Part shown: positions 11,334 to 29,731 of the stretch, piece by piece
Layout: every line of letters begins with the position of its first letter
Position numbering within the stretch: position 1 is the first letter of the stretch
From: Candidatus Hermodarchaeota archaeon
Lineage (GTDB): Archaea; Asgardarchaeota; Heimdallarchaeia; Hodarchaeales; Hodarchaeaceae
NCBI GenBank assembly: GCA_048886185.1
Contig: JBHLKY010000018.1
Location: forward strand, 51,251 to 83,250
DNA length: 32,000 bases
Direction: 5' to 3'
The notes under the pieces: generated by a model
The model's database searches: none
The model's input: the letters and a program-made list of their open reading frames with translations, nothing else
Told to the model about the DNA's origin: nothing
Translations under genes and position numbers: made by a program

Positions 11334-11942
11334 TTAAGAAGGTATTGATTTTGTCTTATATTTTGTCCAAGATGTCAGCAAGGGAGCCCGTTGGTTTTTT
11401 TCTATGAACTTCACAACATTAGATCCAAGTAATGAGAAAGCTTGAGGTATCTGTTCCCCAGTTTTTGCAGAAGTTTCAATGAAATGACATTTAAAGCCAT
11501 CAGGCTCAGTAAGGTTAGTAAGGTTCTTAGTAAAGGACCTGCCTTGGCTTGGAGATATATTATTATCTATTTTATCACGTAAATCGATTTTGTTTCCAAC
11601 CACAACAATCGGTACGCGACCACGTCCATTATTAGTCCATAGTTCATTAATCCATTTTGGCATATTATAAAATGATTCGGGACGAGTGATATCATACACT
11701 AATAAACCTCCAACACAACCATTGTAATATGCCTCTCGAACCCCATCAAAACGTTGTTGACCAGCAAGATCCCAAATTTGGTAACGGACTGGAAAACCAG
11801 CAATACTGTCATCACGCATGGCGAAATCTGCACCAACTGTCAATAGATATTGAGCGTTAAATCCGTGACCGATATAGCGTTCCCTAATGGCTGTTTTACC
11901 AACTCCACCATCTCCAATTAACGCGAGCTTATATACCGTCAT
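11334..11942 (-). CDS. Rab-like small GTPase (Ras superfamily, Asgard type)
   Basis: G1 GDGGVGKT, G2 YLLTVG, G3 WDLAGQ followed by RF, G4 NKID, G5 ETSAK. No C-terminal Cys prenylation motif. Confidence 0.93.
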   Translation of the reverse strand: MTVYKLALIGDGGVGKTAIRERYIGHGFNAQYLLTVGADFAMRDDSIAGFPVRYQIWDLAGQQRFDGVREAYYNGCVGGLLVYDITRPESFYNMPKWINELWTNNGRGRVPIVVVGNKIDLRDKIDNNISPSQGRSFTKNLTNLTEPDGFKCHFIETSAKTGEQIPQAFSLLGSNVVKFIEKNQRAPLLTSWTKYKTKSIPS

Positions 11943-25151: not shown

Positions 25152-26201
25152 ATGCAAGTAATACACGAAAAAAAAAATGAGTTGATTTTTGAGATGGTAT
25201 TTCAAGAATTCGCTCAAGAAATATATCCAGAAGTGATTACTGGAAAAGATCTTTATTATATGCTAAAACTAGCTTCCCAAAAGCTAGAAAAATATATTGA
25301 GATACTTAATGACATAAATGTATTTCCTGTACCAGATGGAGATACAGGAATTAACATGCACCAAACTTTTCAATCTATTATCAGGGAATTGAATAATTTA
25401 GAATTTTATGATCATTGTGGAAAAATTATTTGTTCTGCAGCAAAAGGAGCTTTTTTTGGCAGTATTGGTAACTCTGGTATAATTCTAGCTGAATATTTTC
25501 GTGGACTAGAACAAGAATGGAAAAATTCATGTACTATTGACGGAAAACTATTTTCTAGAGGCTTATTTGCAGCAGCAAAATATGCTTACCAAGCTGTTGA
25601 AAAACCTAGAGAGGGAACTATTCTTACAGTTGGAAGAATTATAGCAGAGACAGCAGATGAATGGATTAAGACAGTAACAAATCCTTTTGAATTATTGTTT
25701 ATTGTTTTTGAGGAAGCTAAAGCAGCTTTATTAAATACACATAGAATTTTACCGGAAGCAAATGTTGCAGGGGTTGTTGATGCTGGAGCAATTGGCCTAG
25801 TGCTAATGTTTGATGGATTTATCGAAGCTATGGTTAATAAATATCCATCTAGTGCTCTCCCATTATATACAATTGATGATGACCTAGCTCCTTTTTTGAA
25901 GCTAAAAATTGATTTCTCACTAATTAAGCATGAGTTTGAAGTAATCTTTAAAATCTCTGGTTTAAAGAAACCTATGGATAATCTTAAAGTTGAACTAAAA
26001 AAAGAAGGATCTTGTCTTCTAATTATTAGTAATGATTCAGTTTCTGAAATTAAAGTTCATATCCACTGTACAGATCCTGATAGAGTTATATCGAAAGTAA
26101 AAGATTTTGTAAGCCATATAGAAGTAGATTCAATTAAATCACTAAATGAACAAAATTACCAACTGTCAAAGCGTATCAAAATGAAAAATGGGAGTGAATG
26201 A
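25152..26201 (+). CDS. fakA: DAK2-domain fatty acid kinase catalytic subunit (FakA/YloV-like; N-terminal and middle domains only)
   Basis: LNDINVFPVPDGDTGINM, GNSGIIL, KPREGTILTV, GVVDAG, middle-domain IKVHIH. At 349 aa it lacks the C-terminal DegV-like domain of full-length FakA. Confidence 0.85.
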   Translation: MQVIHEKKNELIFEMVFQEFAQEIYPEVITGKDLYYMLKLASQKLEKYIEILNDINVFPVPDGDTGINMHQTFQSIIRELNNLEFYDHCGKIICSAAKGAFFGSIGNSGIILAEYFRGLEQEWKNSCTIDGKLFSRGLFAAAKYAYQAVEKPREGTILTVGRIIAETADEWIKTVTNPFELLFIVFEEAKAALLNTHRILPEANVAGVVDAGAIGLVLMFDGFIEAMVNKYPSSALPLYTIDDDLAPFLKLKIDFSLIKHEFEVIFKISGLKKPMDNLKVELKKEGSCLLIISNDSVSEIKVHIHCTDPDRVISKVKDFVSHIEVDSIKSLNEQNYQLSKRIKMKNGSE

Positions 26202-27094
26202 ACACGAAAATAGGCGTTGTAACTGACAGTATGTGTGATTTACCATCAAGCACTTCTGAAAAATATGGAATTATAGTTGTCCCAGGTATTGTATATGTTA
26301 ATGGAAATCCCTTCCATAGTGGTGTGGATATTCATCCTGAAGATATCCAAACCATAATAGAAGACAAAGAGAAAAAAATTCAAACAGGAGCACCATCTCC
26401 TGCTGCTTATTATATGGCCTACGAGAATCTATATGATAAGGTAGATATTATATTAAGTTTACATTGCCCTATCAAACATTCAGGAGTGTTGAACGCAGCC
26501 AAAGCAGGTGCAAGACGTTTAGAAGACTCATCTCGGGTTGTTCACTTTGAGTGTGGAGTCGCGACTATTGGTTTAGGAATTACAGCTGTAGCAACAGCAA
26601 TCAAATCACAACAAATCGAAACTAAACAGGAATTAATACGTCTAGTTCAAGAGTATTGTACAAAGATCCAGATAATAGGAACCCTAGAGTCCTTTAAATA
26701 TCTTCAAAGAAGTGGTAGATTAGGCCTAAAAGTTGCGGGTTGGATTGCTAGTACTTTATCTATAAAACCTGTTCTTTTGATGAGAAATTCTGATATATTT
26801 CTGTTAAAAAAACCCCGAGATAGAAAGGTGGCTCTTAATCAGCTTATTTATAATCTATCTAAGAAGATCGATAAAGAAATTAATCCAAAAATTATTGGAA
26901 TTAGTCACTTCGGATGTGAGGGAGAATTAAATGAAATAGAAAAGAAAATAAAAGGAATACTGCCAAATCATATGATTATTAGAGGTTATGCAGATCCAAT
27001 GGTTGCTGCTAATACTGGACCAGGATTAGTATTAATAGCCTACTTCGCTAATTTTATGGATAATTTAGATAATGGAATAAAAATAAATGCTTGA
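26198..27094 (+). CDS. fakB: DegV family fatty acid-binding protein (FakB-like)
   Basis: VVTDSMCDLP, QTGAPSP, HSG, YLQRSGRL, LSIKPVL, NTGPG. ATGA overlap with the fakA stop. Confidence 0.9.
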   Translation: MNTKIGVVTDSMCDLPSSTSEKYGIIVVPGIVYVNGNPFHSGVDIHPEDIQTIIEDKEKKIQTGAPSPAAYYMAYENLYDKVDIILSLHCPIKHSGVLNAAKAGARRLEDSSRVVHFECGVATIGLGITAVATAIKSQQIETKQELIRLVQEYCTKIQIIGTLESFKYLQRSGRLGLKVAGWIASTLSIKPVLLMRNSDIFLLKKPRDRKVALNQLIYNLSKKIDKEINPKIIGISHFGCEGELNEIEKKIKGILPNHMIIRGYADPMVAANTGPGLVLIAYFANFMDNLDNGIKINA

Positions 27095-27752
27095 AATCAT
27101 ATTTTCAGGAATATTTGGCTACTTAACAGGATCAATTTTCATTTCTTATTATTGGGGAAAAATAAATGGTATTGATTTAACAAAAGAGGGGACAGGGCAA
27201 TTAGGCGCATCGAATACAGGTCGAAACTTGGGATGGCCTGCTATGGTAGTAGTTGGGTTATTTGATATATTAAAAGCCACAATTACTCTTACAATCTTGC
27301 ATTTCTTTTTCAATCATATGGTTCCTTCTCCCCATTATGAAGTTTTATTAATAACTGGCAGTTTAGGGATTGTTTTAGGCCATATAAAATCCTTATGGAT
27401 TTGGTTAGAAAAACATGATTGGTATGGAGGAAAAGGAGGTGCACCCTTTGGAGGAATTCTTTTGTTTCTATCATTGGAAAGCTTCATTATTTTATATGTT
27501 GTATTAATGGTTTTTCTGCAACTACTAAAGCTGTTTATATTGAAAGGAGGATCATATGATAACTTCTCAACAAATGTTATTGTTGTTTTATTGTCTCCTT
27601 TTGTCATTCTTTGGTTTACAGGAAAAATTTTATACTTCATTTTAGTACTCCTAATAATTGGTACAATCATTTTCTTTGAAAGGGAGAAAATCGCTAGTGT
27701 ACTCACGATTACATTATTAAAGGGATCTAGAGAAGCAATAGACGAATCATAA
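27087..27752 (+). CDS. plsY: PlsY-family acyl-phosphate:glycerol-phosphate acyltransferase (divergent)
   Basis: GYLTGSI, GTGQLGASNTGR (motif 1), DILK, LGH...GGKG (motif 2), multiple TM helices. Overlaps fakB by 8 nt. Motif 3 is divergent. Confidence 0.85.
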   Translation: MLEIIFSGIFGYLTGSIFISYYWGKINGIDLTKEGTGQLGASNTGRNLGWPAMVVVGLFDILKATITLTILHFFFNHMVPSPHYEVLLITGSLGIVLGHIKSLWIWLEKHDWYGGKGGAPFGGILLFLSLESFIILYVVLMVFLQLLKLFILKGGSYDNFSTNVIVVLLSPFVILWFTGKILYFILVLLIIGTIIFFEREKIASVLTITLLKGSREAIDES

Positions 27753-27803: not shown

Positions 27804-28607
27804 ATGAGTATTGAGCGAGCAATTTATGAAATAAAAACAAAGCACGGAACAGCCCGTCTAATAAATAAAACTGTGGATCGAAGGGGTCTTCCAGTTCTTT
27901 TTGTTCATGGATTTGGTAGTTCACCTGAAATTTGGTTTAAATATCCTGATAGCCTTGGAAAATTCTTTTTACAAAAAAAAGAGATTGATGTATGGAGTTT
28001 AGGATTGTCAAACGCTATTAGTGGTGATATTGAGGTTCTCGCACAGGAAGATCTCTACACTTCATTGAGCTTTATATTCGAGAGGAGTGAAACACTGATT
28101 CATATCATTGCTCATAGTGTCGGGGGAATCATAGTGAGATTTCTTTTATGTCCCCATTTTCAGCATTCTGATTTAAAACCTGAAGAACTTGTTCAAGGAG
28201 TTTCCCTTCTATCTGTACCAAATCATGGAACTAATAAATTTAAGAGTGATAGAATTTGGAACACAATGAGTCTTATTACTAATTATATTAGGTTTAATCA
28301 ATTATTTGTTCAAGTACTTCGATCAAGTGAACTTATTAATGCATTGAATAACCAGAAACCATGCTTGAATCCCAAAGTAAAGTGGCAAAATGCGGTCAGT
28401 TCTTTCGATAACTTAATTGAACCGGAAAGTATGAGATTTATGGAAGAAGAATTGTTAGATATAGATCTTATACAAAAAGAGTTTCCCTGTGATCATATTG
28501 TTTACCCTTTAAAATGGCTTTTTAATGACAATTATCCACCCATCCATAGATACTCACCTGTTGCTGAGTGGATATATAAGAATGCCTTCACCAAAATCAG
28601 TCAATAG
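27804..28607 (+). CDS. lipase/esterase-like alpha/beta hydrolase
   Basis: Oxyanion motif VHGF, nucleophile elbow AHSVGG (S105), PNHGT, FDNLI (Asp), CDH (His). Starts 51 nt after plsY. Confidence 0.8.
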   Translation: MSIERAIYEIKTKHGTARLINKTVDRRGLPVLFVHGFGSSPEIWFKYPDSLGKFFLQKKEIDVWSLGLSNAISGDIEVLAQEDLYTSLSFIFERSETLIHIIAHSVGGIIVRFLLCPHFQHSDLKPEELVQGVSLLSVPNHGTNKFKSDRIWNTMSLITNYIRFNQLFVQVLRSSELINALNNQKPCLNPKVKWQNAVSSFDNLIEPESMRFMEEELLDIDLIQKEFPCDHIVYPLKWLFNDNYPPIHRYSPVAEWIYKNAFTKISQ

Positions 28608-28877
28608 CAAAACTTGTGTTTATAATATTGAGTTTTTAAGATAGTGTCTTCGAATTGAACCTCCTTGACCTTGAATTAAAGAGAAAATTAAATGGCATGT
28701 AAATATTGTTTGCTACAAATTTATTATGACCGGGAAATCAATAAGAAATCTTTCATTGATGTTGTAATGGATGAATTTTCAAACGAATTTTCCAGTTATG
28801 TGTACTTAATCATAGCAAAAGATAGTTGTTAATACATAATCGTCGTAAGCATCTCTAAATATGTTTTTCTTGTTGTA

Positions 28878-29417
28878 TCATTTATATATCTGTAGAAACT
28901 CATATTTTTCGGGATTATCTTCTTTAATTGCTTCAGCAGCAAGTTTAACATCAATTTGGATAATTGGTTCTAATTGTTTCCTCAATTCTTTCGGATCCTG
29001 TGATTTTCTTGTGAACAAAAATAGAGCTTTCCACAGGTGGCCTTCAACAAGATTGATTGCTTCTTTTGTATTTATCTTGAATACTGGATCAAAATTTTCT
29101 CTAAAAGTATTCTCATCATTAGTTTCACTCACAGAGAAAATTAATAATTTCCAGATGTGTTCTCTGACTTTACCTGTGTCAATTTTGACTATTGGTTCTA
29201 GTTGTTTCCTCAATTCATCTGGATCCTGCAATTCTCTTGTTAAAGAGTATAATGTTGACCAAAAAGAGTCTTCAACTAGTTCAAATGCTTCATTTGAATT
29301 TATTTTAAATATTGGCTCATATTTTTCCCTAAAAGCCCCCTCATCACCGATTGTACTGGTTAAGGAACAAACTAACATCCAGAAATGCTTTTTGATCTTT
29401 TCTTGGTATTCTCCCAT
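28878..29417 (-). CDS. helical repeat protein (2 x 76 aa, each built of 40- and 36-aa subrepeats)
   Basis: W at aa 13/53/89/129 and P at 35/75/111/151. QDPxELRKQLEPI occurs twice; the DNA repeat has a 228-nt period (28963 vs 29191). Confidence 0.7.
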   Translation of the reverse strand: MGEYQEKIKKHFWMLVCSLTSTIGDEGAFREKYEPIFKINSNEAFELVEDSFWSTLYSLTRELQDPDELRKQLEPIVKIDTGKVREHIWKLLIFSVSETNDENTFRENFDPVFKINTKEAINLVEGHLWKALFLFTRKSQDPKELRKQLEPIIQIDVKLAAEAIKEDNPEKYEFLQIYK

Positions 29418-29731
29418 ATCATCACCGATTTGAGTCTATGGATACTAAAGTTCTTTCTTCTTGTTTTATTAAAAAAGATAATTTAAACATATTATATTTT
29501 GTCCATCATGTTAAATCTTTTCTGTCAGTAAAAATATATTTTTCGATAATATGTCTTTAAAGTATTCTAAATTAGTGTAAGCTAGTAAAAATAGTGATAA
29601 ATGCGTCACAGGTATATATCACAATTGGCTTTTTTTCCGTATTTGTTTCAAGAGATACGAAAAAAAATCAAGAACTTTTATGGATACTGGTAATCCAACA
29701 AATGGTAATACTTCAGTTCAAATTTATCCTA

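Follow-up and report, generated by a model that had tools for sequence, protein, structure and literature searches.

No known organisms are more closely related to the eukaryotic host lineage than the Asgard archaea, and how an archaeal ether-lipid membrane was replaced by one of fatty-acyl ester lipids has yet to be explained. We investigated a PlsY-like gene in a 32,000-nucleotide stretch of a Candidatus Hermodarchaeota archaeon contig (JBHLKY010000018.1; the whole stretch is called the window here), together with the genes for a FakA-like fatty acid kinase and a DegV/FakB-like fatty-acid-binding protein that form an operon with it. PlsY and PlsC homologues have been known from Asgard metagenome bins, with a patchy distribution; their function has been called unresolved and PlsX has been noted to be missing (PMC6431249, PMC6737245, PMC9385802, PMC13400652). 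The window gene agrees with those reports (Villanueva 2017; Coleman 2019, PMC6431249; Manoharan 2019, PMC6737245; Rieche 2026, PMC13400652) in being a patchily distributed lipid gene of bacterial type. The earlier reports took Asgard PlsY as one entity and gave no acyl-phosphate source, whereas at least five types can be told apart in our survey: a canonical type, an E/K Fak-linked type to which the window gene belongs, a D/S-T Fak-fused type, a DegV-paired GGQG type and a GGQG type of 404 amino acids (aa).

Two kinds of described systems are closest to this locus. In Aquifex aeolicus PlsY, the acyl-phosphate is bound by the backbone amides of K104-A107, H92, two helix dipoles and T41, while the phosphate of glycerol-3-phosphate (G3P) is clamped by S35, R45, K104 and N180 and its 2-OH is held by S142 and H177; N37 touches neither substrate and was proposed to stabilise the oxyanion (PMC5700162). 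In the FakA/FakB systems of Firmicutes (S. aureus, S. suis and B. subtilis YloV/DegV; structures 7w7h, 7rm7 and 4x9x), a kinase with a DGDTG-containing Dak2 domain and an H-x-H motif in its middle domain works with a separate DegV-fold fatty-acid carrier that has a G-R motif, and the product is acyl-phosphate, the donor of PlsY. The archaeal locus combines both kinds of protein. We give a probability of roughly 50% to the reading that it is a self-contained accessory fatty-acid cassette, in which a PlsY-like membrane acyltransferase is fed by the Fak proteins and its acceptor is most probably glycerol phosphate.

The PlsY-like gene is the last gene of an overlapping operon with the order FakA-like, DegV and PlsY-like (Table 1). 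The stop codon of the FakA-like gene overlaps the DegV start, and the start codon of the PlsY-like gene lies 8 nucleotides within the DegV gene. This gene order and the same 8-nucleotide overlap are found in all six diverged relatives in public assemblies. In all 10 genomes of the genus that carry the PlsY-like gene, the next gene upstream encodes DegV, and a FakA gene is likewise present wherever the flanking sequence reaches. The PlsY-like open reading frame (ORF) is open throughout and encodes 221 aa. It matches PF02660 (G3P_acyltransf) with 81.2 bits (cut-off 24.1) over profile positions 1-161 of 164, and a phmmer search with it found Aquifex PlsY (5xj5; E 1.4e-7, 26% identity). An AlphaFold2 model based on a 143-sequence alignment has a predicted local distance difference test score (pLDDT) of 93.3 and a predicted template-modelling score (pTM) of 0.90. 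Its sole Foldseek matches with E<=0.001 are five PlsY crystal forms, including 5xj5-5xj8 (TM-scores 0.73/0.80). The model has the seven-transmembrane PlsY fold, and both profile and fold place the protein in the PF02660 superfamily. We ruled out that the contig is a bacterial contaminant: Asgard-typical genes, such as that of a Ras-family small GTPase (Table 1), are found in the same window, and all the close homologues come from Asgard bins.

Table 1. Coordinates of the features discussed (window positions, unless the entry names a contig of the source genome)
Feature	Position	Strand	Evidence or remark
Truncated FakA-like fatty acid kinase, 349 aa, Dak2 and FakA middle domain	25152..26201	+	PF02734, 104 bits; PF21645, 36.5 bits
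DegV/FakB-like fatty-acid-binding protein, 298 aa	26198..27094	+	PF02645, 155 bits; TIGR00762, 183 bits (cut-off 99.7)
Putative PlsY-fold acyltransferase, remodelled acceptor pocket	27087..27752	+	Pfam, HMMER alignment, AlphaFold2, Foldseek
Motif 1, GTGQLGASNTGR, residues 35-46	27189..27224	+	T36 for S35, Q38 for N37, S42 for T41; N43 and R46 retained
Motif 2 (loop of the phosphate hole), GGKGGAP, residues 114-120	27426..27446	+	K116 retained; G118 for V106
Motif 3 replacement, FEREKIASVL, residues 197-206	27675..27704	+	E198 for H177, K201 for N180, S204 for R183
Alpha/beta-hydrolase, lipase/esterase-like, AHSVG pentapeptide	27804..28607	+	Weak Pfam matches: DUF7379, Abhydrolase_6, DUF676
Ras-family small GTPase, Asgard-typical	11334-11942	-	PF00071, 140 bits
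ORF of 179 aa with three internal repeats	28878-29417	-	No confident Pfam match
ORF of 190 aa opposite the repeat ORF	28861-29433	+
G1PDH-like gene	G000:C11:104271-105353 (L002:1453-2535)
G1PDH-like gene	G000:C6:183265-184266 (L003:919-1920)
ORF of 89 aa, PP-binding/acyl carrier protein match	G000:C3:104208-104393 (L060)		25.6 bits, just above the Pfam cut-off

The kinase of the operon is a reduced one. The YloV and FakA models are matched over only the first ~300-320 of their 530-549 positions, and the ORF stops after the middle domain; no match to the FakB-binding domain FakA-like_C (PF13684) was found across the 96%-complete genome. The remaining part aligns to 7w7h and 7rm7, and its DGDTG and H303-x-H305 motifs are invariant. 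Thus, unlike the Firmicutes enzymes, the archaeal FakA lacks the entire C-terminal FakB-binding domain and corresponds to the fragment known as FakA_NL. S. aureus FakA_NL lacks the C domain and still has catalytic activity, although its Km for FakB is raised ten-fold (PMC9136124), so that a functional two-domain kinase is plausible. The DegV protein gave full-length alignments to 1pzx, 3fys, 4x9x and 6dj6, and the G-R motif (R174) is present. A complex prediction for FakA_NL, DegV and the PlsY-like protein gave a score of 0.00 and was not used for or against binding. A further difference from Firmicutes is that the archaeal genes are operonic and translationally coupled to the acyltransferase gene. 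To our knowledge, bacterial fak genes are not typically arranged with an acyltransferase in such an operon.

The gene content of the source genome (4.84 Mb, 96% complete) points in the same direction. It has a single PF02660 gene, a single DegV gene and a single Dak2 gene, and these are the three adjacent genes of the operon. PlsX was not found in a profile search of this genome. With no PlsX and a single Fak pair, acyl-phosphate can therefore come from the Fak pair only. The window gene also differs from bacterial PlsY in being encoded with FakA/FakB and not with or beside PlsX. As to acceptors, the GlpK match (701 bits) exceeds its cut-off, and there is a dehydrogenase of the GlpD type; no convincing GpsA was found in the genome, where the matches were Rossmann-fold matches only, two of them to 3-hydroxyacyl-CoA dehydrogenases. 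Two G1PDH-like paralogues score 283 and 325 bits with NF002022, both below the 413-bit equivalog cut-off, and there is one GGGPS-like gene. Judging from these genes, the cell can make both G3P and glycerol-1-phosphate (G1P), and the argument that G1P must be used for want of a G3P source is ruled out by GlpK and the GlpD-type gene. For a second acylation, five PlsC-like acyltransferase genes are present. We also noticed an ORF of 89 aa with a match to the PP-binding/acyl carrier protein family (Table 1), which is possibly an acyl carrier protein in this PlsX-less genome.

We then investigated the distribution of PlsY homologues by searching 400 Asgard genomes with profiles. The E/K type (297-375 bits), which has E198 and K201 where Aquifex PlsY has H177 and N180, is found only in the genus of the window, in 10 of its 22 genomes, and is Fak-linked. 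DegV is found in exactly the same 10 genomes. In both genomes of a sister family (2/2), the homologue (113-117 bits) has D at position 198 and S or T at position 201 and is naturally fused to the kinase as a PlsY-Dak2-FakA_M protein of 585-602 aa, followed by a DegV gene; the representatives P0050 and P0051/P0196 (585-587 aa) each have DegV as the next gene. As a Rosetta-stone fusion, this protein ties the acyltransferase to the kinase. Canonical PlsY proteins, with GSGN, GGKG (GGKS in family f4) and H-R-x-N-I motifs, are found in the families f4 and f6 and have no Fak genes nearby. A divergent type in family f7 has GGQG, lacks motif 3 and is paired with DegV genes, and a type of ~404 aa in family f20 has GGQG and an extra membrane domain and often occurs in tandem arrays. 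In a maximum-likelihood tree, the E/K sequences, the degenerate P0048 and the fusions are grouped together with a support of 96 in the Shimodaira-Hasegawa-like approximate likelihood ratio test (SH-aLRT), and this group is joined by the f7 type (96); the canonical Asgard PlsY proteins form a separate clade (99), as do the 404-aa proteins (99). The E/K and fused types also have in common a 5-residue insertion before GGKG. The cassette behaves like one accessory module, whose genes are acquired and lost jointly.

In family f7, one locus (L052, G084:C8:16000-22500) contains two divergent PlsY-like genes, each convergent with an adjoining DegV gene, and no FakA within 3 kb. As these DegV-paired genes group with the E/K and fused types, the DegV-PlsY linkage is wider than the E/K clade. 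In family f20 (L054, G270:C6:55000-65000; L050, L053 and L058), the PlsY-like proteins are ~400-417 aa long with a ~190-aa C-terminal extra membrane domain. The PlsY-like N-terminal half of these proteins carries GT[KRG]N, in most cases GGQG for GGKG, and no motif-3 His/Asn. There are four tandem copies on one contig at L054; among the L054 copies, GGKG occurs in two and GGRG in one.

We compared the active-site residues of the window protein with those of Aquifex PlsY, taking the equivalences from a HMMER alignment to 5xj5 and the numbering from PMC5700162. S35 is replaced by T36, N37 by Q38, T41 by S42, V106 by G118, H177 by E198, N180 by K201 and R183 by S204, while N42 (N43), R45 (R46), H92 (H99) and G102-G103-K104-G105 (G114-G117, with K104 as K116) are retained. 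The three substitutions Asn to Gln38, His to Glu198 and Asn to Lys201 and the retention of GGKG and Arg46, all noticed in the original prediction, were thereby confirmed, and S35T and V106G are changes beyond those first noticed. The acyl-phosphate site keeps H99, a hydroxyl at S42 and the loop G114-G115-K116-G117-G118-A119; its sole change is V106 to G. In the clamp for the G3P phosphate, R46 and K116 are retained, and T36 and K201 stand for S35 and N180. At the positions of the 2-OH ligand and the oxyanion stabiliser, E198 replaces H177 and Q38 replaces N37; the counterpart of S142 is an invariant N163 (MAFFT) or V164 (HMMER), in a register that is uncertain owing to a clade-specific insertion of ~9 residues directly before this region. 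The other clade-specific insertion, of 5 residues, precedes the GGKG of motif 2 (WLEKHDW region, residues 103-112) and is predicted by AlphaFold2 to form a short helix. Overall, the protein resembles Aquifex PlsY (5XJ5-5XJ9) in its seven-helix fold, the order of its motifs, the acyl-phosphate hole (H92, the GGKG loop and T41 as Ser), the clamp residues R45 and K104 and the invariant N42. It differs in S35T, N37Q, V106G, H177E, N180K, R183S and probably S142N, and also in having lost the GxE tail motif and gained two clade-specific insertions. Judged from the aligned residues, the donor (acyl-phosphate) site is essentially retained and the acceptor (glycerophosphate) pocket is rebuilt. Since the exchange of H and N for E and K is charge-neutral and the charged half of the G3P clamp (R46 and K116) survives, the acceptor likely still carries a phosphate.

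The rebuilt pocket is conserved within its clade. T36, Q38, E198 and K201 show no variation among 24 clade sequences, whose identity to the query is only 48-85%, and R46, H99, S42, G114, G115 and G117 are invariant as well. The columns of N37, H177 and N180 read N in 148, H in 144 and N in 141 of 154 neighbouring PlsY representatives, none of which (0/154) has Q, E or K there. Among 7,288 PlsY homologues, N37 is found in 88%, H177 in 91% and N180 in 89%, and Q, E and K are missing from the alternatives that Li et al. tabulated for these positions (PMC5700162). When 5.8 billion proteins were searched, 22 tight homologues (50-99% identical) were found, all of them from Asgard bins with labels including Hod-, Heimdall-, Hermod-, Thor-, Odin- and Promethearchaeota; below these there is a gap, and then bacterial PlsY follow with E-values no better than 1e-9. 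Among 1.84 billion representatives, an exhaustive profile search gave only 7 sequences above 100 bits, followed by ~5,470 ordinary PlsY at <=82 bits. That T36, Q38, E198 and K201 stay unchanged at identities as low as about 50% points to purifying selection on the new pocket. From these alignments we regard the signature as real, rare and kept by selection, not by chance drift. The substitutions are neither common in ordinary PlsY nor confined to one genome. The proposal of the original prediction that they mark an Asgard subfamily holds for one genus-level clade and does not extend to all Asgard PlsY, a possibility ruled out by the canonical PlsY proteins of f4 and f6.

Two observations concern related sequences. 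The metagenome proteins P0048 and P0195 (244 aa) belong to the same clade and have lost the GGKG lysine (GGVG); their motif 1 reads GTEK and their motif 3 D-W-K-K. From these residues, P0048 looks like a degenerate or re-purposed paralogue. Arg45 of the G3P clamp is present in only 82 of the 154 nearest PlsY representatives, the others having I, V, L, A or M. In Aquifex PlsY, the R45A mutant has 1% activity (PMC5700162). Examples without R45 are the Clostridia/Bacillales-type sequences P0032 and P0035, in which H177 and N180 are retained. There may be a sizeable R45-less PlsY subgroup among the neighbouring representatives.

The original prediction had placed the motif 1 Asn and the motif 3 His and Asn at the acyl-phosphate site; the crystal structures reverse this, as they assign H177 and N180, with S35, to G3P. 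Of its suggestion of an altered donor or acceptor, the donor part is disfavoured by the retained acyl-phosphate site, and the acceptor part stands as a possibility with the rebuilt pocket. A donor site rewired for another donor, or a catalytically dead membrane anchor or receptor for the kinase, is thus highly improbable, even if V106 to G118 and T41 to S42 are small donor-site changes, the FakA fusion in the relatives would fit an anchor role and P0048 has lost the GGKG lysine. Within the clade there is no variation at the donor-site residues H99 and S42 or in the GGKG loop, and strictly invariant polar pocket residues would be unexpected in a mere anchor. The missing PlsX and the obligatory coupling with a fatty acid kinase suggest acyl-phosphate as the donor. 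The operon with the kinase argues that the donor is still acyl-phosphate, independently of the site residues.

The consequences for the acceptor can be considered with the Aquifex mutants. On G3P, S35T retains 17%, N37Q 9.5% and V106G 4% of the activity, H177E has 1% with a 30-fold higher Km, and N180 variants have <=5% (PMC5700162). It could be argued that the window protein is nevertheless an ordinary G3P acyltransferase, in which the substitutions are a compensated, neutral re-solution with unchanged specificity. The PlsY fold and the donor site are intact, E198 and K201 are three residues apart and could pair so that net charge and polarity are preserved, and almost every genome of the genus can supply G3P through GlpK and GlpD-type genes (GlpK in at least 19 of 22). 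However, the lack of Q/E/K among the 154 neighbours and among the alternatives listed for the 7,288 homologues speaks against a neutral solution that is easily reached. The change also coincides with the two insertions near active-site loops, and the equivalog score is half the cut-off. We therefore consider a neutral pocket quite unlikely.

The main rival reading keeps the Fak-made donor and assumes that the acceptor is some phosphorylated or hydroxylated molecule other than free glycerol phosphate. Candidates are an archaeal lyso-lipid like geranylgeranylglyceryl phosphate (GGGP), a glycerophospho head group or another phospho-polyol, giving a mixed ether/ester product or another unusual lipid. 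Of the six positions that contact G3P, four to five have other residues; these replacements are clade-invariant, and each cripples the use of G3P in Aquifex PlsY. The pocket has an extra Lys, a Glu for His and longer side chains at four positions. Stereochemistry alone leaves such a remodelling unexplained, as canonical PlsY takes G1P unchanged: the B. subtilis and E. coli enzymes use G1P and G3P about equally (PMC13400652). This result, with a genome that can make both, weakens the adaptation to G1P offered in the original prediction. Moreover, canonical H/N PlsY proteins occur in other Asgard families without Fak genes, so that the change goes with the Fak linkage, and ether-lipid precursor genes (G1PDH-like and GGGPS-like) are present in the genome. 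On the other hand, R46 and K116 are retained, E and K could re-create the hydrogen bond and phosphate contacts of H and N, the gene context points to no specific alternative, and PlsY chemistry uses a primary hydroxyl beside a phosphate, for which free glycerol phosphate fits best. A different acceptor is thus a possibility that we hold only tentatively. A more specific form of it would be the production, in a Hodarchaeales-type Asgard archaeon, of chimeric ester/ether or G1P-ester lipids that belong to neither textbook class, where scavenged fatty acids are esterified by a re-specified PlsY onto G1P or a GGGP-like ether lyso-lipid and the kinase is tethered at the membrane to, or fused with, the acyltransferase; this we regard as speculative and rather unlikely.

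For the glycerol phosphate cassette, we infer the following activity, donor and acceptor. A lipase-like hydrolase may release free fatty acids, which would be bound by DegV/FakB and phosphorylated to acyl-phosphate by the two-domain FakA, a natural FakA_NL. The PlsY-like protein would hold the acyl-phosphate in the conserved phosphate hole and pass the acyl group to a phosphorylated polyol. This acceptor would sit in the rebuilt pocket, with R46 and K116 retained, T36, E198 and K201 in place of S35, H177 and N180, and probably N163 in place of S142. It would most likely be glycerol phosphate (G3P and/or G1P), yielding an ester lipid of the lysophosphatidic-acid type.

Several points weigh against this reading. 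The PlsY equivalog model TIGR00023 gives 67.9 bits, below its cut-off of 137.2, and the remaining PlsY equivalog models give <=35 bits (cut-offs 163-419). By simple extrapolation from the Aquifex mutants, G3P should bind poorly in the rebuilt pocket. In the kinase, the alignment indicates that the catalytic Cys240 of the Cys-His-His triad is replaced by Glu (~residue 263), which is invariant in 7 of 7 unfused archaeal FakA_NL proteins; the PlsY-fused forms have Cys. The C240A mutant of S. aureus FakA is ~200-fold less active. The unfused proteins could have a Glu-His-His variant of the FakA Cys-His-His site. In the window DegV protein, the carboxylate-binding FakB His near the GPG motif appears to be Asn. 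Finally, the cassette is dispensable: 12 of the 22 genomes of the genus lack it, and one of these is a single contig with 96% completeness. Since the protein lacks the defining G3P-pocket features and scores below the equivalog cut-off, annotating it as a proven G3P acyltransferase would not be justified.

The hydrolase is encoded 3' of the operon (Table 1). Its AHSVG pentapeptide is similar to AHSMG, which is found in Bacillus family I.4 lipases. Homologues with 79-86% identity lie directly 3' of the PlsY-like gene in six related genomes, which form a closer subclade, and other members of the E/K clade have a different alpha/beta-hydrolase one gene upstream. Elsewhere in the window, the 179-aa ORF of Table 1 has three internal repeats of ~55-60 aa (…DP[DK]ELRKQLEPI[IV][KQ]ID…), and an ORF of 190 aa is open on the opposite strand.

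In the searchable literature, which did not cover subscription journals, we found no prior paper on an archaeal Fak-PlsY cassette or on the E/K pocket. Asgard PlsY homologues have long been cited as hints of bacterial lipids, with two objections: that there is no PlsX to make acyl-phosphate, and that no function has been shown. The first objection is answered for one lineage by a dedicated minimal fatty acid kinase whose gene accompanies that of the acyltransferase; in a sister family, the two proteins are fused. The second is sharpened, since the protein is not a plain PlsY and its acceptor pocket was rebuilt and then frozen by selection. Eukaryotic glycerol-phosphate acyltransferases (GPATs) are not of the PlsY type, and the cassette is an accessory one, carried by 10 of the 22 genomes in a single genus and occurring in fused form in a sister family. 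Thus, it bears on archaeal lipid flexibility and not directly on eukaryotic lipid ancestry. Nothing is overturned by this finding, but a concrete three-gene system makes the role of Asgard PlsY homologues testable.

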